Below are positions 4,010-55,700 of a DNA stretch of 64,000 bases, piece by piece. The notes under the pieces are model-generated. The model was not told where the DNA came from. It did no database searches and saw nothing but the letters and a program-made list of their open reading frames with translations. The translations under genes and the position numbers were made by a program. The DNA comes from Mustelus asterias (Eukaryota), in assembly GCF_964213995.1 (NCBI RefSeq), contig NW_027590123.1, forward strand, positions 62,001 through 126,000, given 5' to 3'. Within the stretch, counting starts at the first letter, position 1; every line of letters begins with the position of its first letter.

Positions 4010-5021
4010 ATTTGAAAAATAGTTTGTGAGCTCCTTTTGACCTAAAAGAGGCCAACATCTGTGAGTAAAACACTTTCTTTGCTCCGCTTTTGCGTTTCTT
4101 TTGCATTCTGGGGGAAATTGGGGACTTGTTGAATTTTTAACTTCCAGGTCACCACTCGCTGCCTGAATAAAAATCCTCCTCACATTCTTCATGTATCTGT
4201 AACCAGGTAATACAGTGCATTACACACATCATCAATCATTAAAACTTTAAAGTGGCTGTCAGCTTGAAGATTAATCATAGATCATTTGCACTTCCACAAC
4301 CCCCTGAGGCAGCGGCTTCCAGGTAATGACCTTTCTGCACCTTTCTGCACCGAAATAAAATTCTTCCCCATACCCTTCTCCTTCTCCCAATCCAGTTATC
4401 CGGTCCCACATATGGCACAGATTTTAATTTCTAGCGTGTAGGCCGGTCATTACACGTAGATTTTCAGATCTCTGTGTCCAGTACAGGAAGTAGTCAGCAT
4501 GGATCCGTTAATCAGCCATAGACTTGGGAGGTTGTATACTCAGGAGAGCAGAGTGAGAATTGAGGGAGAATGTGTGGGATGGAGATTGACAGCTTTTGGG
4601 GAATGAGAGAGGAAAGAATGTTCCATAGAAACTAGAATTGTCTGTTCTGAATTTCTATCCTGTGCTGACAGTGATGTCTGTTGTAAATTCCTTTCATAGA
4701 TATCAGGAGATGAGGATTTATAGACAGAAATTTCAAACTAAACATCACATGAAGATTTGACCTCAATATCATCGACCTTTGAATCTAGAAAAGCAATGTT
4801 TGTCTGATCTGTTTGCTTCAGGAGATTTTAAACATCAGTGTGACTGGAACACACCCGAGTGAGAGTGTTCCAGTCCACCGATAGTGGAAAGAGCTTTAAC
4901 CAGTTACACAGGCTGAAACAACATTGCACTGTTTACAGTGAAGAGAGATCGTACACGTGTTCTGTGTGGACAAGGATTCAACTGATCATCAAACCTGGAG
5001 AGTCACAAGGACACCCGCATC

Positions 5022-6548
5022 ATGGAGAAACTGTGGAAATGTGACGATTGTGGACAAGGATTCATGTTGCCCTGTGATTTGGAAATCCATCAATGCAGTC
5101 ACACTCGGGAGAGACCCTTCACTTGCTCAGTGTGTGGGAAGGGATACATTAAGTTCTCCCACCTGCAGAGTCACAATCTCACTCACACCAATGAGAGACC
5201 CTTTAAATGCTCTGACTGTGGGAGCGGATTCAGAAGCTCTGGAGAACTGGTGTCCCACCAGCGCATTCACACTGAGGAGAGACCGTTCAGCTGCTCTCAC
5301 TGCACAATGAAATTTAAATGGTCATCCACACTGCGGAGACATCAGCGAGTTCACACCGGGGAGAGACTGTTCAGCTGCTCCATGTGTGGGAAGGGATTCT
5401 CTCGGTCCTCCGAACTGCGGGCACACCAGCGAATTCACACTGGGGAGAGACCGTTCACCTGCAATGTGTGTGGGAAGGGATTCTTTCGGTCATCCGCCCT
5501 GCTGACGCACAAAGTCACTCACACCAATGAGAGACCCTTTAAATGCTCTGACTGTGAGAGTTGCTTCAAAAGTTCTCGGGATCTGATGTCCCACCAGCGC
5601 ATTCACACTGAGGACAGACCGTTCAGCTGCTCTCACTGCACAATGAGATTTAGATCATCATCAAACCTGCGGAACCATCAGCGAGTTCACTCCGGGGAGA
5701 GACCATTCACTTGCTCTGACTGTGGGAAGGGATTCACGCAGTTATCCGCCCTGCTGACACACCAGCGAGTTCACACCGGAGAGAGGCCATTCACCTGCTC
5801 TGTGTGTGGGAAGGGATTCACTAATTTATCCAACCTGCTGAGTCATAAAGTCACTCACACCAGTGAGAGGCCCTTTAAATGCTCAGACTGTGGGAGCGAA
5901 TTCAAAATTTCTGGGGAACTGGTGTCCCACCAGCGCATTCACACTGAGGACAGACCGTTCAGCTGCTCTCTCTGCACAAAGAGGTTTAAGAGGTCATCCA
6001 CACTGCAGAGACACCAGCGAGTTCACACCAGGGAGAGACCATTCATCTGCTCTGTGTGTGGGAAGGGATTCAGTCAGTCATTCACCCTGCTGACACACCA
6101 GCGTCTTCACACCGAGGAGAGACCATTTACCTGCACCGAGTGTGGGAAGGGATTCACTCTGTCATCCACCCTGCTGACTCACCAGCAAGTTCACAGCGGG
6201 GAGAGACCGTTCACCTGCTCAGAGTGTGGGAACAGATTCACTCGGTTATCCAGCCTGCACAGACACAAAGTCACTCACTCCCAGGAAAGACCCTTTAAAT
6301 GCTTTGACTGTGGGAGTGGCTTCAAAATTTCTGAGCATCTGATAGACCACCAGCGCATTCACACTGGGGAGAGACCGTTCAGCTGCTCTCACTGCACAAA
6401 GAGGTTTGGAAGGACATGCACACTGAGGAGACACCAGCGAGTTCACACTGGGAGAGACCATTCACCTGCTCTGTGTGTGCGGAAGGATTCTCTCGATACC
6501 CCAGCTGCTGACGCACAATGTCCCTCACACCCAGGAGAGACCCTTTAA
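5022..6548 (+). CDS. C2H2 zinc-finger protein, 17 tandem fingers, frameshifted tail
   Basis: 508-aa ORF with HTGERPF linkers; a 1-nt deletion near 6450 shifts the last fingers out of frame. Confidence 0.9.
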   Translation: MEKLWKCDDCGQGFMLPCDLEIHQCSHTRERPFTCSVCGKGYIKFSHLQSHNLTHTNERPFKCSDCGSGFRSSGELVSHQRIHTEERPFSCSHCTMKFKWSSTLRRHQRVHTGERLFSCSMCGKGFSRSSELRAHQRIHTGERPFTCNVCGKGFFRSSALLTHKVTHTNERPFKCSDCESCFKSSRDLMSHQRIHTEDRPFSCSHCTMRFRSSSNLRNHQRVHSGERPFTCSDCGKGFTQLSALLTHQRVHTGERPFTCSVCGKGFTNLSNLLSHKVTHTSERPFKCSDCGSEFKISGELVSHQRIHTEDRPFSCSLCTKRFKRSSTLQRHQRVHTRERPFICSVCGKGFSQSFTLLTHQRLHTEERPFTCTECGKGFTLSSTLLTHQQVHSGERPFTCSECGNRFTRLSSLHRHKVTHSQERPFKCFDCGSGFKISEHLIDHQRIHTGERPFSCSHCTKRFGRTCTLRRHQRVHTGRDHSPALCVRKDSLDTPAADAQCPSHPGETL

Positions 6549-10450: not shown

Positions 10451-10843
10451 AGATCACGGAGCAGCTTCTCACTCTGGCCGGAGCCGCCAGCCGGTTGCCT
10501 GGAAACCTTGGCTGGAGGAGGTGGAAGGGGGAGGGGAACAATGGTTGGGGGCGGGGCTCCCGGGTCCGCGCGGCGGAGATCCCACCCCCTGACCTTGGGG
10601 GAGTGGACAGAGTAAAACTTCCTCCTGCCTTAAAAGAGGCAACATCTGTGAGTAAAACACTTTCTTTTCTCCCCCTTTCCATTTATTTTCTCATTCTGGG
10701 GGAAATTGGGGACTTGCAGCAACTGAAGGTAAAGGAAGTGAATCCAGTCTGTACATTCCACACATTGTTACTCCAGTCAGATAGACATATATCTGTCTGG
10801 CAGCCTGCATGGAGATTTCCAGCTCTCTGTGTCCAGGACAGGA

Positions 10844-11718: not shown

Positions 11719-12155
11719 GTGAATATTAGATACAGCTGAGTGAGAATGGAGGGAGAGTGTGTGGGATGGAGATTCACAGCTTTTGGGGAATGAGAGAAGA
11801 AACATAGAGAAAGTAGAATTGCCGATTCTGAATTTCTATCCTGTACTGACAGTGATTATTTTTGTAAACTCCTTTCACAGGATACCAGAAGGTGGAGGAT
11901 TTACGGACAGAAATCTCAAACCAAACATTAAGTCAAGATCTGACAGAATTACTCGATTCATTGGGATCTGAATGTTATCGGCCTTTAAATCCTGATGGAG
12001 AAATGTTTCTCTCTTCTGTCTACTTCTGAAGACTTTAAACATCAGTGTGACTGGGAAGTTACTGAGACACACACACATCCGAGTGAGAGTGTTCCATTGC
12101 ACTGACTGTGGAAAAATTCAACTGATTGTTTAACCTGGAGAATCTCAAGGACACC

Positions 12156-13424
12156 ATGGAGAAACCATGGAAATGTGGGGACTGTGGGAAGGGATTCAGG
12201 TTCCCATTTCAGCTGGAAATTCATCGACGCAGTCACACTGGGGAGAGACCGTTCACCTGCTCTGTGTGTGGGAAGGGATTCACTCAGTTATCCAGGCTGC
12301 GCGCACACAATCTCACTCACACCCGGGAGAGACTCTTTAAATGCCCTGACTGTGGGAGTGGTTTCAAAAGCACTGCAGAACTTGTAACCCACCAGCGCAT
12401 TCACACTGGGGAGAGACCGTTCAACTGCTCTCACTGCTCAAAGGGATTTAAAAGGTTATACACTCTGCAGAGACACCAGCGAGTTCACACTGGGGAGAGA
12501 CCATTCACCTGCTCTGTGTGTGGGAAGGGATTTGCACAGTCATCCAGCCTGCTGAGTCACAATATAACCCACACCAATGAGAGACCCTTTAAATGCTCTG
12601 ACTGTGGGAGCAGCTTCAAACGTGCTGCGGATCTGAGGGACCACCGGCGCAATCACACTGAGGAGAGTCCGTTGAGCTGTTCTCACTGCACTAAAAAATT
12701 TAGAACATCATCCACACTGCGGAAACATGAACGAGTTCACACCGGGGAGACACCTTTCACCTGCACCATGTGTGGGAAGGGATTCACTCAGTTAAGCCAT
12801 CTCTGGAGACACCAGCGAGTTCACACGGGGGAAAGGCCATTTACCTGCACTGTGTGTGGGCAGGGGTTCACTCAGTTAAACAATCTCCTGAGACACCAGC
12901 GAGTTCACACTGGGGAGAGGCCATTCACCTGCACCATATGTGGGCAGGGATTCACTCAGTCATCCGACCTGCGAATACACCAGCGAATTCACACTGGGGA
13001 GAGACCGTTCATCTGCTCTGTGTGTGGGAAAGAATTCAATGATTCATCCACCCTGCGGGCACACCAACATATTCACACCGGGGAGAGGCCATTCAAATGC
13101 TCTCTGTGTGGGAAGGGATACGTTCACTCTTCTGACCTGCAGACACACCAGCGAATTCACACTGGGGAGAAACCGTTCAGTTGCTCTCACTGCACAAAGA
13201 GGTTTAATAGGTCATCCGACCTGCTGGCACACCAGCGAGTTCATACTGGGGAGAGACCATTCAGTTGTTCTCATTGCACAAAGAGGTTTCATCGGTCATC
13301 TGACCTGCTGAAACACCAGCCAGTTCACACTGGGGAGAAACCGTTCACCTGCTCCATGTGTGGGAAGGGATTCACTCAGTCATCCAGCCTACGGGTACAC
13401 CAGCGGGTTCACACCAGGGAGTGA
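12156..13424 (+). CDS. C2H2 zinc-finger protein, 15 fingers
   Basis: ACCATGG start, MEKPWKCGDCGKGF; ORF ends at a TGA inside a linker. Confidence 0.9.
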   Translation: MEKPWKCGDCGKGFRFPFQLEIHRRSHTGERPFTCSVCGKGFTQLSRLRAHNLTHTRERLFKCPDCGSGFKSTAELVTHQRIHTGERPFNCSHCSKGFKRLYTLQRHQRVHTGERPFTCSVCGKGFAQSSSLLSHNITHTNERPFKCSDCGSSFKRAADLRDHRRNHTEESPLSCSHCTKKFRTSSTLRKHERVHTGETPFTCTMCGKGFTQLSHLWRHQRVHTGERPFTCTVCGQGFTQLNNLLRHQRVHTGERPFTCTICGQGFTQSSDLRIHQRIHTGERPFICSVCGKEFNDSSTLRAHQHIHTGERPFKCSLCGKGYVHSSDLQTHQRIHTGEKPFSCSHCTKRFNRSSDLLAHQRVHTGERPFSCSHCTKRFHRSSDLLKHQPVHTGEKPFTCSMCGKGFTQSSSLRVHQRVHTRE

Positions 13425-20890: not shown

Positions 20891-21662
20891 TTTCTTTTCT
20901 CTCCCTTTCAATTTATTTTCTCATTCTGGGGGAAATTGGGGACTTGCAGCAACTGAAGGGAAAGGAAGTGAATCCAGTCTGTACATTCCACACATTGTTA
21001 GTCCAGTCAGATAGACCTATATCTGTCTGGCCGCCTGCATGGAGATTTCCAGCTCTCTGTCCAGGACAGGAAGCAGTGAGCATGGATCTGTCAATCAGCC
21101 TCAATCAGCACCTTCAGGAGAATTGGGAGGGTGAATATTAGATACAGCAGAGTGAGAATGGAGGGAGAGTGTGTGGGATGGAGATCCACAGCTTTTGGGA
21201 AATGAGGGAGGAAAGAATGTTCTATAGAAACTAGAATTGTCTGTTCTGAATTTCTATCTTGTATTGACAGTGATTACTTTAATAAATTCCTTTTACAGAT
21301 TATCAGAAGGTGAGGATTTACAGACAGAATCTCAAATCAAATGACACATCAATATCTGACAGTCATTCAATTCATCACGTCCTGAACATCATCAGCCTTT
21401 GTATCTGGAAGGAGCAATATTTCTCTGTTCTTTTTGCTTCTGGAGATTTTAAACATCAGCGTGACTGGGAATTTACCAAGTCGCACGCACACACCCGAGT
21501 GAGAGTGTTCCAGTGCACTGAGTGTGGAAAGAGCTTTAACCAGTGACACAGTCTGAAAAAAACATTGCGGCATTCACAGCGGGGAGAGACTGTACCTGTG
21601 AGAGGTTCTGTGTGAGATTTAACTGATTGTTTAACCTGGAGAGTCACAAGGACCCCCGCACC

Positions 21663-22421
21663 ATGGAGAAACCGTGGAAATGTGGGGACTGTGGGAAGGG
21701 ATTCAGGTTCCCATCTGAGCTGGAAACTCATCGACGCATTCACACTGGGGAGAGACCATTCACCTGCTGTGTGTGTGGGAAGGGATTCTATGATTCATCC
21801 AACCTGCAAACACACCAACGAATTCACACGGGGAAGAGACCATTCACCTGTTCTGATTGTGGTACCAGATTTACTCAGTTATGTCATCTGCAGACACACC
21901 AGCAAATTCACACTGCGGAGAGACCGTTTACCTGTCCTGTGTGTGGGAAGGGATTCACTGACTTATCCAGCCTGCGGATACACCAGCGAGTACATTCCGG
22001 GGAGAGGCCATTCAACTGTCCTGTGTGTGGGAAAGGATTCACTTGGTTATCCAGCATGCGCAGACACAGAGTCACTCACAGCAATGAGAGACCCTATAAA
22101 TGCTCTGAATGTGGGAGCGACTTCAAAAGCTCTCAGGTTCTGATGTCCCACCAGCGCATTCACACTGAGGAGAGACCGTTCAGTTGCTCTCACTGCGCAA
22201 AGAGATTTAGAATGTCATCCTATCTGCGGGTACACCAGCGAGTTCACACTGGGGAGAAACAATTCACTTGCTCTGCCTGTGGAAAGGGATTCACTCAGTT
22301 AACCAATCTGCAGAGACACCAGCGAGTTCATACTGGGGAGAGGCCATTCACCTGCACCGTGTGTGGGAACGGGTTCACTCAGTCATCCCACCTGCAGACA
22401 CACCAGCGAGTTCACAAGTGA
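21663..22421 (+). CDS. C2H2 zinc-finger protein, 9 fingers
   Basis: ACCATGG start, intact fingers, ends HQRVHK*. Confidence 0.9.
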   Translation: MEKPWKCGDCGKGFRFPSELETHRRIHTGERPFTCCVCGKGFYDSSNLQTHQRIHTGKRPFTCSDCGTRFTQLCHLQTHQQIHTAERPFTCPVCGKGFTDLSSLRIHQRVHSGERPFNCPVCGKGFTWLSSMRRHRVTHSNERPYKCSECGSDFKSSQVLMSHQRIHTEERPFSCSHCAKRFRMSSYLRVHQRVHTGEKQFTCSACGKGFTQLTNLQRHQRVHTGERPFTCTVCGNGFTQSSHLQTHQRVHK

Positions 22422-29925: not shown

Positions 29926-30600
29926 TCACTCATGAACTTGTTGGTGTCTCAGCAGCAAGAATGAAACTCTGAATCCCTTCCCACACTGAGAGCAGGTAAA
30001 TGGCCTCTCCCCAGTGTGAACTCGCTGGTGTCTCCACCAGCTGGATGACCGAGCAAATCCCTTCCCACACTGAGAGCAGGTGAATGGTTTCTCTCCAGTG
30101 TGAATTCGCTGGTGTGTCTGCAGATCGGATAACTGAGTGAATCCCTTCCCACACAGGGAGCAGGTGAATGGCCTCTCCCCAGTGTGAACTCGCTGGTGCC
30201 TCCGCAGGTTGGATGACTCACTAAATCCCTCCCCACACACAGAGCAGCTGAATGGCTTCTCCCCAGTGTGACCTCGTTGGTGTCTCTGCAGGTTGGATGA
30301 CTGAGTGAACCCCTCCCCACACTGATAGCAGATGAATGGCCTCTCCCCAGTGTGAATGCGCTGGTGTGTCTGCAGAGTAGATAACCGAGTGAATCCCTTC
30401 CCACACTGAGAGCAGGTGAACGGCCTCTCCCCACTGTGAACTCGCCGGTGTCTCTGCAGGCTGGATGACAGAGTGAATCCCTTCCCACACTGAGAGCAGA
30501 TGAATGGCCTCTCCCCAGTGTGGCTGCGCCGATGAGCATCCAGCAGAGATGGGGATCTGTAACTCTTCCCACAGTCTGCACATTTCCATGGTTTCTCCAT
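29926..30600 (-). CDS. C2H2 zinc-finger protein, 8 fingers
   Basis: ACCATGG start at 30600, [10 protein letters not shown], ends HQQVHE*. Confidence 0.9.
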
Positions 30601-32059
30601 GGTACAGGTGTCCTTGCCTCTGTCTTGTTTGGACAATCAGTTAAAGCCTCGTCCACACACAATATGAGTATAGTCTCTCCCCACTGTGAATGGTGTGATA
30701 TTTATTCAGGCAGTGTAACTGGTTAAAGCCCTTTAGTCAGTGCACTGGAACACTCTCACTCGAGTGTGGCAGCGTGTTGCTGCTTTTCCAGTCACACATA
30801 CATTTGAAATCTATTCAAATCGACAGATCAGACAATTATTTCTCCTGCTAGATTCAAAGGCCAATGATATTCAGATCCCAAGGAACATGACTCTGTCGGA
30901 CCTAGACGAGACGGTTGAGATTTCGGTCTGTGATTCCTCTTTCAATATCCTGCAAAATGAGTTTGCAAAAGTCATCAGTGTCAGTACAGGATAGAAATTC
31001 AGAACAGACAATTCTAGTTTCTATGGAACATTCTTTCCTCTCTCATTCCCCAAAAGCTGTAAATCTCCATCCCACACACTCTCCCTCCATTCTCACTCTG
31101 CTGTATCTAATATTCACCCTCCCAATTCTCCTGAAGGTGCTGATTGAGGCTGATTGACAGATCCATGCTCACTGCTTCCTGCCCTGGACACAGAGACCAT
31201 AACAAATAGGAGCTGCAGTCGGCCATTTGGCTCATCGAGCCTTTTAAACTATTCAATGAGATAATTCGTTCATCTACCTCAGCATCATTCTCCCCACACT
31301 AAACCCATATCCGTTGATACTTTCAATATCTAGAAACCAATCAATCTCTCCCCTGAAAATACTTGATGACTGAGGCTCCACTGTCCTCAACAGTTGAGAA
31401 TTCCAAAGCTTCACCACATGCTTGAGTGAAGAAATCCCCCCACATCTGAGCTTTTGCTCCATCTTCTTGTCTGTTCCCCATAACCATTAATGCCCGTCAG
31501 TGAAAAATCAGTCCAACTCATCCTGGAATATATTCAATGATCCTCAGCCTCCACTGGTCCCTGTGGAAGACAAATCCAAAAGACTTACAACCCTCTGAGG
31601 GAAGAAATGTCTGGAAATATATAATGTAGCTACAGTTCCAAATTACAAGTCTGTGGATTCTATTTAAAAATGAAACTGGATGGGCACTTGAAGGAAACAA
31701 ACTTTCAGGAGAATGGGGATACAGAGTGGGAATGGGACTGGAACGTTATCCAGAATGTCGGCATGGACTCGAGTTACCGAATGGACTCCTTCTGTGCTGT
31801 AATGACTCGATGACTGGAAATGTATAAGATAGCTACAGCATTATATTACAAGACAAGAAATAACAGTAAATGCACTTTTTTACAGAAACATAAATAATAT
31901 ATCTAAACTGTACCATATAACAACACTAGGCATATCTCTGTCCTGTATCAATTTACTGTCCCCTTAAATGTCAGCCATCTCCTGGGGAAAGATGCCTTTT
32001 AATTGTGAACATTAGGAAAGAGACCATCCTTTTAGCCAGACAAATAAATGTGTCAAACT

Positions 32060-37014: not shown

Positions 37015-37975
37015 AGAACAAAGAAAATTGCAGCACAGGAACAGGCCCTTCGGCCCTCCAAGCTTGCACCGACCATACTGCCTGACTTAACTAAAACCCA
37101 CTACCCTTCCAGGGACCATATCCCTCTATTCCCATCTGATTCATGTACTTGTCAAGACGCCCCTTAAAAGTCAATACCGTATCTGCTTCCACTACCTCCC
37201 CCGGCAATGAATTCCAGGCACCCACCACTCTGTGTAAAACATCTGCCTCGTACATCTCTTTTAAACTTTACCCCTCACACCTTAAACCTATTCCCCCGAG
37301 TAATTGACTCTTCCACCCTGGGAAAAAGCTTCTGACTATCCACTCTGTCCATGCCTCTCATAATCTTGTAGACTTCTATCAGGTGTCCCCTCAACCTCCG
37401 TCGCTCAAGTGAGAACAAACCAAGTTTCTCCAACCTCTCCTCATAGCTAATGCCCTCCATACCAGGCAACATCCTGGTAAATCTTTTCTGGACCCTCTCG
37501 AAAGCCTCCACATCCTTCTGGTAGTGTGGCAACCAGAATTGAACACAATATTCCAAGTGCGGCCTAACTAAAGGTTCTATAAAGCTGCAACATGACTTGC
37601 CAATTTTTAAACTCAATGCCCCAGCCGATGAAGGCAAGCATGCCGTATGTCTTCTTGATGACCTTCTACACCTGCATTGCCACTTTCAGTGATCTGTCCA
37701 CCTGGACACCCCAATCCCTTTGCCTATCAATATTGTTAAGGGTTCTGCCATTTACTGTATATTTCCTATCTGTATTAGACCTTCCAAAATGCATTACGTC
37801 ACGTGTCTGGATTAAACTCCATCTGCCATCTCTCCACCCAAGTCTCCAACCGATTTATATCCTGCTGTATCCTCTGATAGTCCTCATCACTATCCGCAAA
37901 TCCACCAACCTCTGTGTCGTCCGCAAATTTTCTAATCAATCCAGTTACATTTTCCTCCAAATCATTTATATATAT
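37015..37975 (-). mobile_element. 5'-truncated CR1 LINE
   Basis: IYINDLEE..KFADDT, RPHLEYCVQFW; same subfamily as 8340..9795. Confidence 0.95.
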
Positions 37976-37984
37976 TATATATAT

Positions 37985-38417
37985 CCTGTGTGAATTCGCT
38001 GTTGTGTCCAAAGACTGGATGGCCTAGCAAACTCCTTCCCACACAAGGAGCAGGTGAACGATCTCTCCCCAGTGTGAACTCGCTGATGTGCACTGAGGTT
38101 GGATGAACATGAGAACCCCTTTCCACAGGTGGAGCTGCTGAACGGCCTCTCCTCAGTGTGAATTTGCTGGTGTAACAGCAGGTGGGATGAGATAGTGAAT
38201 CCTTTCCCACACACAGAACAGATGAATGGCCTCTCTCCAATGTGACTATGTCTATGGTTTTCCAGCAAGTACGGATAATTGCATCCTTTATCACAATCAT
38301 CACATTTCCATGGTTTCTCCATTTTCCCAACCCCAATGAGACCGTGTCAATGGGTTTCCAACCGGGTGGATAATTGAATCCTTTACCACAATCCTCACAT
38401 TTCCACGGTTTGTCCAT
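37985..38417 (-). pseudogene. ZNF, frameshifted after finger 1 and truncated by CR1
   Basis: MDKPWKCEDC at 38417, second MEKPWKC at 38322, fingers end abruptly at the (TA)n/CR1 junction. Confidence 0.85.
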
Positions 38418-39383
38418 GGTGCTGGTGTCCTTCTGTCTCTCCAGGTTGGATGATTAGTTGAAGCCTCATCCACATACAGACCATGGTGTGATGTTTTTCA
38501 GGCTATGTAACTGGTTAAAGCTCTATCCACAGTCAGTTCACTGGAGCACTCTCACTTGGGTGTATGTGTGTGTCTCAGTTCTTTTTCTGTCACATTGAAT
38601 TTCGAAATTTTCTTCCACTGACAAAACAGGGAATGATTTATCCCTCCACTGTCAAAAGCAATCATATTTAGGTCATGATGAATCGAATGGCTCTGTCAGA
38701 CTTTGATGTGAAGTTTAGTTTGAGTTTCCTGTCTGTGAATCTTCCTCTTCTCGTTCCCTGCACAAAGAGTTTTAAAAAACTGCTTCAGAACAGACAATTT
38801 CAGTTTCCACGAAACATTTCTCTGTCTCATTTATCTTGAGCTGTAATCCCCATCCCACACACTCTCTCTTGTCCCTGAGCTGAAATCAAACTCATTGCCC
38901 CATCTCCACTCTGAGCCCAGCTTCCTCTCCCTCCAGCTGGATTCAGTCCTGCAGGCCATGTGCAGATTGAGAGTACAATCAAGGAGTCAATTATTTTCCT
39001 TCCAAGTCAGGGGACGTGCAGCCCCACTGACTCTGTTGTTACCACAATGGGCACACGTGCTCTGCTCACCAATGAAACACCACGGTGACCATTAACATGG
39101 GCCTGTTCCTTGGAAAAGCTCCATTTTATTTGTGCCACAACAGCAGGGGAATTACCTCCTGCACAGGCACAAAGGTATCATCAGTCACAGAAAATAATTG
39201 CAGCTGGTGTCTCAAACCTCATTTTACCATTTGCTCCCAGACATTCTCAATTCAATTTTGAAATGCAAACTGAAATCTGGCAAAGTGGGGTAAATTAAAC
39301 ACATTTTAATGGTCATTTTCAGAATGACTATTCCCGAGAATTAATTCCCAAGTCAGTGAATTAAAATTCTCATCAGCAATGCA

Positions 39384-43720: not shown

Positions 43721-44312
43721 ATGATTTACAGTTTGGCCACATTATGAACACGCCTTCCTCGGCCATGTACTCTGAGTGGGAGTGGAAACCAGAGCTTCTG
43801 ACTCAGAAGAAGGGTCACTCCCCACTGCACCACATCTTCACAGTGCACAATCCAGACTAATAAATCCAACAGGAAAACAGGAGACATTTCTTTTCACAAA
43901 CAGTTGTTAAAATGTGGAACTCACTGGAAGTAGTTGAGACTTCGATTCTTTCAAAAGGAAACTAGATGAGAATGAGAGAAAAGAGAGGCTGAAAGGCTGA
44001 GATGAGGTTAGCAGAATAGGAGGAGACTCATGTGGAGTAGAAACTCCGTACAGACTAGATTGCCCGAATGGCCTGTTTGTGTATTATATAGTCTATGCAA
44101 TTCTTCGTGAAATTATTTTGCAGAGTAATGGAAGAGGAGAATTTGCAGTCAGGAAAAACAAACCAAACTTTGTGTCACAATTGGAAAGTCAATTCATCAG
44201 GATGTGAAGATTTGTGCATCTGAAGGGATTTAATTGACTGTCTCAGCAGGAAGCTAGTGAGAGTCTGTAAACCTGCTCTTCCTGTGGGAAGGGATTGATA
44301 CAGCTGGAAAAC

Positions 44313-45653
44313 ATGCTGACGCGACAGCGAGCTCGCAATAGTGAGAGTTCATTCACCTGCTCCGTGTGTGGGAAGAAATTCATGTGTTCGTCCAACCTTC
44401 TGGCTCACCAACTCGATCACATTGATGAGGAGCCTCTTCAAAGCTCTGACTCTGGGGACAGCGTTGAGACACCTGAGGAACAGGCCCAATACCAGCTCCT
44501 TCACACTGACGAGAGACCGTTCAGCTGCTCCCACTGCGGGAAGAGGTTCAGCCAGTCCTCCCGCCTTGCAGAGCACCAGCTCCTTCACACACACGAGAGA
44601 CCGTTCAGCTGCTCCCACTGTGGAGAGTCGTTCAGCGACTCAGTGCATCTCACTGAGCACCAACAAGTTCACACCAAGGACAGGCCATTCAGCTGCTCCC
44701 AGTGTGGGAAGAGATTCACTCAGTCCTCCCACTGCACAGAGCACCAGCTCATTCATTCTGATGAGAGAAGTTTTAAATGCTCAGAGTGTGAGAAGACCTT
44801 TAAAATGAACAATAGTCTCCTGAGACACCAATGCACTCACAGTGGGGAGAGGCCGTTCCCGTGCTCTGTGTGTGGGAGGAGATTCAATCATTCATTCCAC
44901 CTTCTGAGGCACAAACTTGTTCACACGGGGGAGAAACCATTCACCTGCTCCGAGTGTGGGAATGGATACACTCGCTCATCTGACCTTGTGATACACCAAC
45001 GAATTCACACCGGAGAAAGGCCGTTCACCTGCTCCAAGTGTGGGAGGGGATTCACTCGTTCAACGCACCTTGTGATGCACAAGCGGATTCACATTGGGGA
45101 GAGGCCATTCTCTTGCTCTGTGTGTGGGAAGAGATTCACTCAGTCATCCGCCCTGCGCACACACAAGCGAGTTCACACCGGGGAGAGGCCGTTCACCTGC
45201 TTCGTGTGTGGGAAGAGTTTCCCTCGTTTGTCCCATGTTGTGATACACGAGCGGGTTCACACCGGGGAGAGGCCGTACATTTGTCATGTGTGCGGGAGGG
45301 CCTTTACTTGTTTACACCACGTGCAGAAACACCAGCTTGTTCACACCGGGGAGAAGGCCTTCATCTGCTCCGTGTGTGGGAAGCGTTTCCCTGAGTCCTC
45401 CAGCCTCCAGAGACACGAACGCATCCACACTGGGGAGAAGCCGTTCACCTGCTGTGTGTGTGGGAAGGGATTTGTTCAGTCGTTCGACCTGGTTAAACAC
45501 CGACGAGTTCACACCAGGAAGAAGCTGCTCACCTGCTCTGTGTGTGAGAAGAGATTTACTCGGACATCCCGCCTGCTGAAACACCAGAAACTTCACATCT
45601 TACCAACAAAGCTGGACTCTGCTGTTGCTGCTGAGAATCACACCCAGGACTGA
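44313..45653 (+). CDS. C2H2 zinc-finger protein, 14 intact plus 1 degenerate finger, C-terminal LDSAVAAENHTQD
   Basis: open frame from 44295, first ATG at 44313 (start uncertain); divergent subfamily. Confidence 0.85.
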   Translation: MLTRQRARNSESSFTCSVCGKKFMCSSNLLAHQLDHIDEEPLQSSDSGDSVETPEEQAQYQLLHTDERPFSCSHCGKRFSQSSRLAEHQLLHTHERPFSCSHCGESFSDSVHLTEHQQVHTKDRPFSCSQCGKRFTQSSHCTEHQLIHSDERSFKCSECEKTFKMNNSLLRHQCTHSGERPFPCSVCGRRFNHSFHLLRHKLVHTGEKPFTCSECGNGYTRSSDLVIHQRIHTGERPFTCSKCGRGFTRSTHLVMHKRIHIGERPFSCSVCGKRFTQSSALRTHKRVHTGERPFTCFVCGKSFPRLSHVVIHERVHTGERPYICHVCGRAFTCLHHVQKHQLVHTGEKAFICSVCGKRFPESSSLQRHERIHTGEKPFTCCVCGKGFVQSFDLVKHRRVHTRKKLLTCSVCEKRFTRTSRLLKHQKLHILPTKLDSAVAAENHTQD

Positions 45654-47639: not shown

Positions 47640-48710
47640 GCATTCGCCAAATCCAACTCTTGCACTCATTTGTGAACTCACTGGTGTCTCAGTAGGTTGG
47701 ATGATGGAGTGAGTCCCTTTCCCACACACACAGCAGGCGAATGCACCCTCCTCAGTGTGAACTTGCTAATACGCCAGCAGCTCAGATGAGTCAGCAAATT
47801 CCTTCCTTCACCTGGAGCATCTGAACAGCCTCTCTCCGGAATGAACTTGCTGGTGTGCCGACAGACTGGCAACTGAGTAAATCCATCTCCACAAATGGAG
47901 AATGTGAAAGTTCTCTCCTCAGTGTGACTGTGTTGATCATTTCCCAGTTGAAACGGGTAAATGAATCCCATCCCTCAATCCCCATATGTCCATGCTTTCT
48001 CCATGGTGCTGGTGTCCTTGTGTCTCTCCAGGTTGGATGATCAGTCAAAGCTTCATCCACACACACAACACGCATACAGTCTCTCCTCGCTGTGAATGCT
48101 GTGATGTATTTTCAGGATGTGTAACCGGTTAAAGCTCTTTCCACACTCCGTTCACTGGAACACTCTCACTCGGGTGTGTCTGTGTCTCGGTGCTTTTCCA
48201 GTCACACAGATATTTGAAATAGGGCGGCACGGTAGCACAGTGGTTAGCACTGCTGCTTCACAGCTCCAGGGACCTGGGTTCGATTCCCGGCTTGGGTCAC
48301 TGTCTGTGTGGAGTTTGCACATTCTCCTCGTGTCTGCGTGGGTTTCCTCCGGGTGCTCCGGTTTCCTCCCACAGTCCAAAGATGTGCTGGTTAGGTTGAT
48401 TGGCAATGCTAAAAATTGCCACTTAGAGTCCTGAGATGCGTAGGTTAGAGGGATTAGCGGGTAAATATGTGGGGGTAGGGCCTGGGTGGGATTGTGGTCG
48501 GTGCAGACTCGATGGGCCGAATGGCCTCCTTCTGCACTGTAGGGTTTCTATGAAATCTTTTACCACAGATAGAACAAACAAACATTTCTCCTTCCACATT
48601 GAAAGGTTAATGATATTCAGGTCCTGATGAATCGAGTGATTCTGTTAGATCTCAATGTGATGTTTGGCTATAAGTTCCCGACCTGTAAATCATCCCCTGC
48701 TAATACCCTG
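47640..48710 (-). pseudogene. decayed ZNF terminal exon interrupted by a SINE
   Basis: degenerate MEKAWTY start at 48004, broken fingers, HK* end near 47667. Confidence 0.85.
48222..48552 (+). mobile_element. young full-length HE1-like SINE
   Basis: near-identical to 17905..18246; tgaaat on both sides (possible TSD). Confidence 0.9.
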
Positions 48711-51178: not shown

Positions 51179-51929
51179 GGTGCTGGTGTCCTTGTGTATC
51201 TCCAGGTTGGATGATCAGTTAAAGCCTCATCCACACACAGAACACGTGATGATTTCTCCTGGCTGTGAATGTTGTGATGTTTTTTTCAGGCTGTGTAACT
51301 GGTTAAAGCTCTTTCCACAGTCAGTTCACTGGAACACTCTCACTTGGGTGTGTGTGTGTCTCGGTGCTTTTCCAGTCACACTGATGTTTGCAAAACAAAC
51401 AAACATTTCTGCTTCCACATTCAAAGGTCGATGATAATCAGGTTCTGATGAATGGAACAATTTTGCTGTATTTTTGTGTGATGTTGTGTTTGAGTTTCAC
51501 ATTTGCAAAACTTCCTCTTCTAATACCCTGTAAAAGGAGTTTACAAAAATTATCATTGTAACATGATAGAAATTCAGAACAGATATTTAATTTTCTATTG
51601 AATATTCTTTTCCCTTGTTTGTTTCCCCAAATATGTGGTCCAAACAAACTAAAAGAAAAAGATCAGCAACAAAGTACCAACAAGAAGAAAGGTTAGCTTC
51701 CTAACGAAACCAGAATGTTGTTTCCAGTGTCTTGAAGTTACTTTGTACCCTGCGATGCTCATCAGTTGTGGAAGGTAGCAAGTGCATCAGTGGACACCAC
51801 ATGCTCCCTCTCCAGGAGAGACTGCAAGGATATGCGACATCCACCCAATTGCTATGGACACTGCTCATTCAGCTTCAACAAATTGTTGTTTGAATCTGGC
51901 CCAAGAGCAGGTCCAGGAGAAGATACTCT

Positions 51930-53930: not shown

Positions 53931-54767
53931 ATCCCAATTAGTGAATAGTGATTATTTTTGCTGTGTTGTGGAAATTGTGGCGGGTGGGGAAACCGATAAA
54001 ATTAGGAACAAAATCATAAATTACGCCAAGTGTACAGACCGTTAATTATCAACCAGAAAGAAGGAAAATAGGGATTGCTGAAAGACTGTCCTTTTAAGTA
54101 TTGAAATTATATTTATAATGAGAAGAAAATCAATCTGTGTAGCTTTAGTGAATATCGATATGCAAAGAGTAAGATGAAAGACTTTTAATCACCTCAAACA
54201 CTTGGCATAGAACTGTCTGAAACTCAAAACAGGAGCTTCAGGAAATCAATGACAAAATGAGCATTTATAAATATGTAAATATATATATATATATACATAT
54301 ATAAATTTATAAATGAGCATTTACACCGTTGACAGAAGACATTTTTAAATGTAAATTATTTACACTCAATCACTTTTGTATTCATTTGTGGGACGTGGAC
54401 GTCGCTGGTCGGCCAGCATTTATTGCCCATCTCCAGTTGCCCTTGGTGGGCACTTAAGATTCAACCACATTGCTGTGGCTTTGGTATCACATGTTTTAAT
54501 GACAATGTTACAATCCATAATTATCCATGTGGCAGAATGTATCCCATCAGTGACTGGTTGTCTGTTCTGAATTTCTGAGCTGTACTGACAGTGATGACAT
54601 TTGCAAACTTCTTTTACAGGATATTAAAAGGGAAGAACTTGCCATAAGAAATCTCAAACCAAACTTCACACCAAGATCTGACAGAGTCACTCGATTTAAT
54701 AGGATGAGGCAAACCATCGCCCATTTTACCATTCCTGTGACTGGAAAAGCACCGAGACACCGACACC

Positions 54768-55700
54768 ATGGGGAAACCGTGGAAATGTGAGGGTTGTGGA
54801 AAGGGATTCAAGTCCCCATCTGAGTTGGAAATTCATCGACGCAGTCACACCGGGGAAAGACCATTCACCTGCTCTCAGTGTGGGAAGAGATTTACTAATG
54901 CATCCGACCTGCTTACACACCAGCGAGTTCACAGCAGGGAGAGGCCATTCACCTGCTCTGTGTGTGGGAAGAAATTCAGTATTTCATCCAACCTAGTGAG
55001 ACACCATCGAGTTCACACAGGGATGAGACCATTCAGCTGCTCAGTGTGTGGGAAAAGATGCAGAGATTCATCCACCCTACTGGTACACCAACAAGTTCAC
55101 ACCAAGGAGAGGCAATTCATCTGCTCTGACTGTGGGAAGAGATTCACTCGGTCATCCAGTCTGCAGAGGCACCATCGAGTTCACACTGGGGAGAGACCAT
55201 TCACCTGCTCAGAGTGTGGGAAAGGATTCAGAGATTCATCTGACCTGCTGGCACATCAGCGAGTTCACACTGGAGAGAGGCCGTTCATCTGCTCCGTGTG
55301 TGGGAAAGGATTCGGAGATTCCTCCACCCTGCTGATACACCAGCGAGTTCACACTGGGGAGAGACCGTTCACCTGCTCCACTTGTGGGAAGGGATTCACT
55401 CAGTTAGCCAACCTGCTAAGACACCAACAAATTCACAGCGGGGACAGGGAGAGGCCTTTCATCTGCTCAGAGTGTGAGATGGGATTCTGTGAGTTATCTA
55501 CCCTGCTGACACACCAGCGGGTTCACACTGGGGAGAAGCCATTTACCTGCTCCGTGTGTGGGAAGAGATTCAATCGGTCATCGAACCTGCTGACACATCA
55601 GCGAGTCCACACTGGGGAGAGACCATTTACCTGCTCTGTGTGTGGGAAGGGATTCACTCAGTCATCCCACCTGCTGAGACACCAGCGAGTTCACAAGTGA
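54768..55700 (+). CDS. C2H2 zinc-finger protein, 11 fingers
   Basis: ACCATGG start, [10 protein letters not shown], ends HQRVHK*. Confidence 0.9.

Follow-up and report, generated by a model that had tools for sequence, protein, structure and literature searches.

Shared stop codons in the fossil-finger leader of a shark zinc-finger gene family are probably inherited founder mutations

Upstream of a long C2H2 zinc-finger ORF of Mustelus asterias, the DNA reads as remnants of further fingers interrupted by two stop codons, and the same stops recur ahead of the neighbouring genes. Are they kept for some role in translation, or simply inherited? The window, i.e. the whole stretch of DNA analysed (64,000 nt, G000:C91:62001-126000, from an assembly of 3.68 Gb), holds a tandem C2H2 gene cluster on both strands, amid LINE and SINE debris. 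Eight of its units carry the leader under study, and are named here by the position of their start codon. The parts of the 5022 unit, followed by its paralogs, are:

4053..4066 (+): splice-donor motif conserved in the family, end of a likely non-coding exon 1; last exon base 4060
4690..4700 (+): exon 2 acceptor site, with exon sequence from base 4700; homologous to the intact-paralog acceptor
4700..4795 (+): dead spacer, remnant of the ~40-codon stretch before finger 1 of intact paralogs, changing at the intron rate
4796..4860 (+): ex-finger 1, with old internal ATG at 4796 and TSV-site TGA at 4841-4843 (helix +3); out of frame with the main ATG
4861..4945 (+): ex-finger 2, where a slow, mosaic block begins
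4946..5021 (+): ex-finger 3, with FN-site TGA at 4983-4985 (helix -1)
5022..5024 (+): start codon inside the former linker (M-E-K-x-W-K-C)
5022..6548 (+): main ORF, 508 aa, 17 C2H2 fingers, no effector domain in the first 100 aa; frameshifted tail
11881..13424 (+): paralog, leader TGA at 12048 and 12123; ORF 422 aa, 15 fingers
21299..22421 (+): paralog, leader TGA at 21462 and 21624; ORF 252 aa, 9 fingers
29926..30949 (-): paralog, leader TGA at 30794 and 30639; ORF 224 aa, 8 fingers
37962..38757 (-): broken paralog, leader TGA at 38592 and TAA at 38456; frameshifted ORF, zero fingers in frame
47660..48707 (-): broken paralog, leader TGA at 48204 and 48043, split by a ~350-nt insertion; ORF of 9 codons
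50255..51527 (-): paralog, leader TGA at 51378 and 51217; ORF 307 aa, 10 fingers
54620..55700 (+): paralog with leader mostly deleted, TSV TGA at 54738, FN site absent; intact 310-aa ORF, 11 fingers

The genes have a two-exon layout, in which exon 1 ends in a conserved donor motif and exon 2 opens 320-360 nt before the ATG. In the majority sequence of 202 aligned units, exon 2 comprises the acceptor, ~40 spacer codons, three fingers and the linker ATG. The donor at 4060 probably belongs to the 5022 gene, judging from its position and from the like layout at 10647/12156. No open frame into the donor was common to the first exons examined (31/38; no frame in 11, phases scattered). The finger array, with TGEKP-type linkers, lies in one exon and counts 17 fingers in 5022-6548 and 8-15 in five paralogs; the closest named proteins to the window genes are shark gene models. 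The donor motif also occurs in mirror-image pairs around GC-rich promoters of head-to-head genes (4060, 10647 and 33249 on the plus strand, 32695 and 35316 on the minus strand, with further partial hits). At 6440-6548 (+), the last fingers of the 5022 gene are frameshifted, and contigs of its relatives have one extra base after 6449. The insertion at 48221-48550 (-), SINE-like in appearance and ~350 nt long, interrupts ex-finger 1 of broken unit 48004. A tandem duplication of the first coding finger (38322-38417 -; also L046, L051, L052, L055, L158 and L167) creates a second M-E-K-P-W-K-C-like start 96 nt downstream. Another type of the family, with a divergent leader and without the M-E-K-P-W-K-C start, is found at 44100-45653 (+; 446 aa).

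All stop coordinates given in the preliminary description were confirmed. The FN stop lies 39 nt 5' of the ATG in six units, as TGA at 4983+, 21624+, 30639-, 48043- and 51217- and as TAA at 38456-, and 33 nt 5' of it at 12123+. The TSV-site TGA is present in 8/8 leaders (4841, 12048, 21462, 30794-, 38592-, 48204-, 51378- and 54738), and that at 54738 does stand in frame, 30 nt before the ATG. Both stops fall on helix positions as described, -1 for FN and +3 for TSV. Just 3/8 units (12156, 21663, 54768) have the TSV TGA in the frame of the main ATG; in five, the 5022 unit among them, frameshifts have moved it out of that frame. An ACCATGG start context had been ascribed to the family: seven of the eight units have it, but the 5022 unit reads ATCATGG. 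Three ex-fingers are indeed what two intact paralogs encode, but the peptide quoted for the leader is a composite that no window unit reads in one frame. Two of the eight genes are broken, 48004 being reduced to 9 codons and 38417 having no finger in frame.

Among genome-wide matches with exact flanks, 95 of the 100 listed (of 460) have TGA as their TSV codon; at FN, a hand count of the 100 matches listed (of 102) gave TGA 68, TAA 27, TCA 2, TGG 2 and GAA 1. In one sublineage (L159 -1708, L172 +9242, L224 +5795) the FN stop has become TCA and the linker ATG ACA, and a frame of 408 codons and 14 fingers is kept. In four other loci (L039 -894, L047 +2143, L049 -905, L054 +2141), an insertion after several coding fingers has brought in the last part of ex-finger 3, TGA included, together with the linker ATG, so that the TGA now closes the upstream array and a second array follows.

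How large is the family that shares this leader? At the M-E-K-P-W-K-C start, a 32-nt pattern, matched exactly, has at least 1,826 matches in the whole genome (backwards control: 0); these are assembly copies, near-identical duplicates among them, and those listed sit mostly on few contigs. First-look candidates numbered 3,196 genome-wide, with 0 for the backwards-pattern controls. The classified representatives comprise 122 intact and 43 broken genes; together with the start matches, this indicates a clustered family of high copy number with birth and death. Leader likeness between copies is above chance and is homology, and the stops common to copies reflect descent, not independent events.

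The ancestral state can be read from relatives. In paralogs L174 (G000:C1) and L187/L217 (G000:C857), the acceptor is followed by a spacer and three fingers that are all coding; these stop-free leaders are 2 among 150 scored of 25,793 candidates, and more may exist. L174 has a 373-aa ORF from the first exon-2 Met, and a candidate exon 1 of ~13 codons with matching phase. These two single-copy intact paralogs prove that the leader consists of fossil fingers. Both stops had been attributed to CGA>TGA changes. This does not apply to the TSV site: helix position +3 is Trp (TGG) in both intact paralogs, so that the stop probably arose by TGG>TGA; the remaining 15 TGG matches at this site, where translated, sit in frameshifted or fragmentary leaders. 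The attribution stands for the FN site, on the evidence of a sister subfamily of the same clusters, in which fingers 1-2 are deleted, an older Met serves as start and finger 3 is kept open. Its FN codon is CGA in 20 and CAA in 6 of 26 matches, the pattern having admitted these two codons only; in CpG decay both are partners of TGA, and a CGA>TGA change at a methylated CpG is thereby supported.

The sister genes also bear out the birth of the start codon in a finger linker, since they read G/E/R-E-K-P-W-K-C there. The codon before E-K is GGG, GAG or AGG, and in 4 of the 10 loci read it is ATG with finger 3 still open, hence the linker Met is independent of the stop; it lies one step from AGG. 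That the family expanded after N-terminal truncation agrees with the counts, at least 1,826 exact start matches versus 2 stop-free leaders (150 scored). The front end was thus shed by two separate routes, stops plus linker start on the one hand, and deletion of fingers 1-2 on the other. A direct intact ancestor with the W-K-C finger was not found among these relatives, and for both ancestral codons the reading comes from side branches.

Gene models of Mustelus, Scyliorhinus, Heterodontus, Chiloscyllium and Cetorhinus include linker-start proteins or leader remnants; the sister type is found in those of Cetorhinus and Scyliorhinus, and the ray Hemitrygon has a related form with a deletion. This cross-species evidence consists of protein sequences, from which the first base of the stop codons cannot be fixed. 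Since linker-start proteins and leader remnants span four galeomorph orders, the truncation is old, with an age of about 200 million years. Protein searches for orthologs of the intact paralogs returned mostly generic finger proteins or were swamped by long finger arrays, and a query with X at the stops returned no candidate. Three leader fragments were also met outside this setting. One (L173, G000:C21, ~54.469 Mb, match 5131 -) extends from the acceptor to finger 1, has CAG at the TSV site and lies antisense, just inside the first intron of another gene, the first exon of which looks like what we take to be an ADP-ribosylhydrolase. The others (L175 on G000:C68, L202 on G000:C4) are lone fragments without finger ORF, far from clusters; both stop just past the CA repeat behind finger 1, which is where the uniform block described below begins.

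Are the stops maintained, as the TGA>TAA change had been taken to hint? Changes were counted on trees rather than on copies, with 187 representatives, obtained by thinning at 4% the 249 units that aligned well among 269 distinct ones, with 119 of these representatives that were not chosen by leader sequence, and with 124 having intact ORFs; in all, five analyses of 119-187 copies were made. Controls were three out-of-frame TGA triplets in the same block and six upstream TGAs. Stop-destroying events per triplet per 100 copies were 10.8-12.6 for the stops versus 10.4-11.6 for the same-block controls (p 0.41-1.0), and stop loss was equally frequent in intact genes. Stop-keeping versus losing changes were 15/44 for the stops and 15/53 for the controls (p 0.68; range across analyses 0.29-0.68); against all nine controls, the lowest p was 0.072, in one of the five analyses. 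The comparison of stop-to-stop with stop-to-sense changes, proposed in the preliminary description, thus yields no excess over controls, and the 5-9 independent TGA>TAA events at FN do not exceed those at control TGAs. TGA triplets in intron and spacer undergo 21-25 events per 100 copies. The stops therefore decay as their same-block neighbours do, yet at about half the rate of intron and spacer, which indicates that the block as a whole changes below the flanking rate.

Indels, too, ignore the frame. Among 117 copies not selected by leader, 34 of 120 distinct indels in ex-finger 2 and 20 of 74 in ex-finger 3 are multiples of three, and the distance from old to new ATG splits 35/44/38 modulo 3. 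Only 8 of these copies lack a frameshifting indel in ex-fingers 2-3, as compared to 100 for the first 166 coding bases. In the finger frame, pN/pS is 0.89 for ex-fingers 2-3, 1.08 for spacer and finger 1, and 0.56 for the ORF. Protein-level constraint on the ex-fingers was considered on the basis of an uncorrected pN/pS of 0.75 and rejected, this value rising to 0.89 once corrected for transitions and CpG. Across the family the leader frame is dead, and the claim that its stops are maintained does not hold.

Two readings would nevertheless give the stops a role in translation. One is that they are kept because the uORFs they close, at a fixed distance, would control reinitiation at the linker ATG. 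FN is indeed the first in-frame stop, 13 codons upstream, in 140/211 extracted units, TAA is its commonest variant (27/100 among the matches listed), and the old finger-1 ATG with the TSV stop would give a 15-codon uORF. However, that ATG changes fast and is kept in 59/107 unselected copies, TAA at FN amounts to 5-9 events, as in controls, and stop loss is no rarer in intact genes. The FN stop ends no uORF in the intact units 5022, 12156, 21663 and 30600; where one does end there (48004; near FN in 51178), it is a 3-codon product of CpG decay. The uORFs vary between units, and unit 54768 has lost the FN site with its ORF intact. Nor are uATGs avoided: new ATGs arise at 3.4% in the 3' leader versus 2.8% for control CAT triplets, and 7/124 intact genes have no uATG in the aligned leader. 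With no common uORF ending at the FN stop, we consider this control, which the preliminary description had favoured, very improbable. The other reading, given there as less likely, is that full-length proteins arise by recoding of the TGA codons, be it through readthrough, selenocysteine or A-to-I editing to Trp. It could appeal to the facts that in-frame stops of the best-kept leaders are mostly TGA, that Trp is the ancestral residue at the TSV site, and that, for both sites, gene model P0042 of Scyliorhinus implies a codon ending in G. Against this, just 8/117 copies are free of a frameshifting indel in ex-fingers 2-3, the finger frame is kept in 4/243 leaders, each with 4-5 stops, codon periodicity and a pN/pS signal are both absent, and extra TGAs stand at former Arg, Cys and Gln codons, together with TAA and TAG. 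Frameshifts and extra stops exclude recoding in practice. As to a SECIS element, an Rfam scan of 4300-5300 gave nothing near threshold.

Could the region be spliced out of mRNAs? In contigs of four runs from four studies, presumed RNA and matched at 85% likeness in a large family, summed depth is 290-2,184 at 4828-4918 versus 0-3 at 4282-4463. Single contigs of this presumed RNA span 4820-5021 and 4963-5200. Such coverage weakly suggests an unspliced leader. A role of the FN site as branch point with a late acceptor found no support, as contigs cross FN into the ORF and no such joint was seen among the 15 listed of 543.

The stops look fixed, then, because they lie in a slowly changing block and not because of selection on them. 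This block extends over ~200 nt, beginning at the CA repeat that follows finger 1 and ending midway through the first coding finger, with sharp edges on pairwise divergence maps; it changes at ~60% of the flanking rate, in broken genes too, and has a mosaic look. Changes per non-CpG site are 9.8 in the block versus 14.9 upstream, and the slowdown holds for A, G and T. In 22 sister pairs of 8-20% divergence, the block differs by 9.4-10.6%, spacer and intron by 15.9-18.2% and fourfold sites by 16.4%; the 32 youngest pairs show no clear difference between block and flank. Along branches, values for block versus flank are 2.2% versus 4.0% in broken and 3.2% versus 3.9% in intact genes, the slowdown being stronger in the former. 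Block distances correlate with those of either flank at 0.11-0.37, below expectation from position, and for the far upstream part the correlation is higher with the ORF, at 0.30, than with the block, at 0.12-0.17. One derived haplotype, marked by a 7-nt deletion, diverges by 9% in the block and 26% upstream, as compared to 9% and 11% in another subfamily. It forms one clade on the block tree; on the upstream tree it requires 9 changes (AU p 0.037, or 0.002 under looser typing), and on the downstream tree it requires 10 changes, one clade not being rejected (p 0.21). This test included 27 copies of the haplotype, with 13 ambiguous rows omitted and a sample of 45 from the 114 others. Of 11,945 pairs, 49 are close in the block yet distant on each flank, versus 45.5 expected under a uniform slowdown; since such a slowdown predicts them, this count by itself is no proof of conversion.

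From these sequence comparisons, interlocus gene conversion appears the most likely cause of the uniform block, with a little better than even odds. Distinctly less probable, though to be taken seriously, is that the stops are incidental and the ~200-nt block is selected as DNA or RNA, e.g. as a binding site for chromatin or family proteins, as splicing enhancers or as a small-RNA target. This would fit the lower non-CpG rate (9.8 vs 14.9), the slowdown in sister pairs and its presence at A, G and T; moreover, when neighbours are picked on coding sequence only, 77/102 are closer in the block than in the upstream part, and the C1 paralog agrees with the family at 80/88 finger 2 sites. It is at odds with conservation spread across the block without any single motif, with 18 diagnostic columns that separate subfamilies, the 7-nt deletion among them, with broken genes being slowed as much as intact ones, and with unit 54768 doing without the block. 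A folding signal is also absent (block z +0.25 to +1.0; no consensus leader helix, no compensatory pair). RNA structure was rejected as a candidate, with only a hairpin of 4-6 pairs over the start codon, without compensatory change; Rfam was blank, the scan of 4300-5300 giving nothing near gathering score. Local differences in mutation rate seem the least probable of the three.

Taken together, we propose, with a probability of roughly 0.78, that the leader represents the front end, now dead, of an ancestral zinc-finger gene with two exons and that its stops are passively inherited founder mutations, not a translation switch. Both stops would have been fixed, likely once, in a founder copy, the TSV stop from TGG and the FN stop from a methylated CGA, and carried passively by many descendants. 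Translation would start at a Met arisen in the linker before finger 4, reached by scanning past changeable short uORFs, and the protein would be a bare finger array. Gene conversion between paralogs may be the main agent keeping the block from finger 2 to the first coding finger uniform. Shark sequences change slowly, which would keep the rest of the leader recognisable.

More speculatively, and at rather long odds, thousands of paralogs may exchange, in one piece, a start cassette of ~200 nt (dead fingers 2-3, linker ATG and first half of the first coding finger), or the cassette may be retained for a control function at the DNA level. If so, it would re-supply a fixed translation start to rapidly diversifying finger arrays, and the fossil fingers would be dead coding sequence put to work as a handle for recombination or chromatin. 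The leader is a real molecular fossil in the history of a shark gene family, and no new translation mechanism. It establishes where probably the main shark zinc-finger expansion came from and where its genes truly start: these are bare arrays descended from a founder that had been truncated, intact relatives survive as single copies, and there is a second route of truncation, by deletion. It can also aid annotation, as gene models often stitch leader fragments into false N-termini; it offers shared characters for dating the family across shark orders, and one region as target for knocking down or assaying the entire family.

How does this family compare with known systems? In regulatory uORFs of the ATF4/GCN4 type, reinitiation follows short upstream frames. 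The shark leader resembles them in its short upstream frames and main ATG in good context, but has no conserved uATG-stop pair and no fixed-start spacing constraint, and new uATGs are not avoided. Shark models named zinc finger protein 239-like or gastrula zinc finger (P0045, P0048, P0056, P0058, P0064, P0066; from Mustelus, Heterodontus, Chiloscyllium and Cetorhinus) share the M-E-K-P-W-K-C start, or linker and leader remnants, the latter also seen in P0042 and P0059 of Scyliorhinus; their names are automatic, and none of these records describes the fossil leader, the intact paralogs or the two truncation routes. In the literature searched, no description of this zinc-finger leader was found. 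Catshark clusters of recent zinc-finger duplicates are mentioned in a section of PMC11979771, and the main text of PMC10547256 has no 'shark', 'cartilag' or 'chondr', though its supplements may hold shark counts.

According to PMC10547256 and PMC2443715, KRAB-ZNF and FiNZ-ZNF genes are clustered and duplicating, with the finger array in one last exon after a short upstream exon, and zinc-finger genes number 718 in human and about 700 in zebrafish; the latter source also describes loss of N-terminal parts as recurrent in mammalian zinc-finger genes. The shark family is like tetrapod KRAB-ZNF and cyprinid FiNZ-ZNF in its clustering, two-exon layout and many broken copies, and its at least 1,826 copies exceed both of these gene numbers. 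It differs from them in the effector domain: Pfam returned nothing but finger families, whether for the ORF's first 100 aa or for the N-terminal part of the two intact paralogs, with no KRAB, SCAN, BTB or FiNZ-type domain (FiNZ lying outside the models used), and exon 1 of the C1 paralog would encode ~13 residues. As compared to these systems, what the shark family has lost is fingers and spacer, not an effector exon; the lost parts persist as an untranslated leader, and translation probably starts in a former linker.
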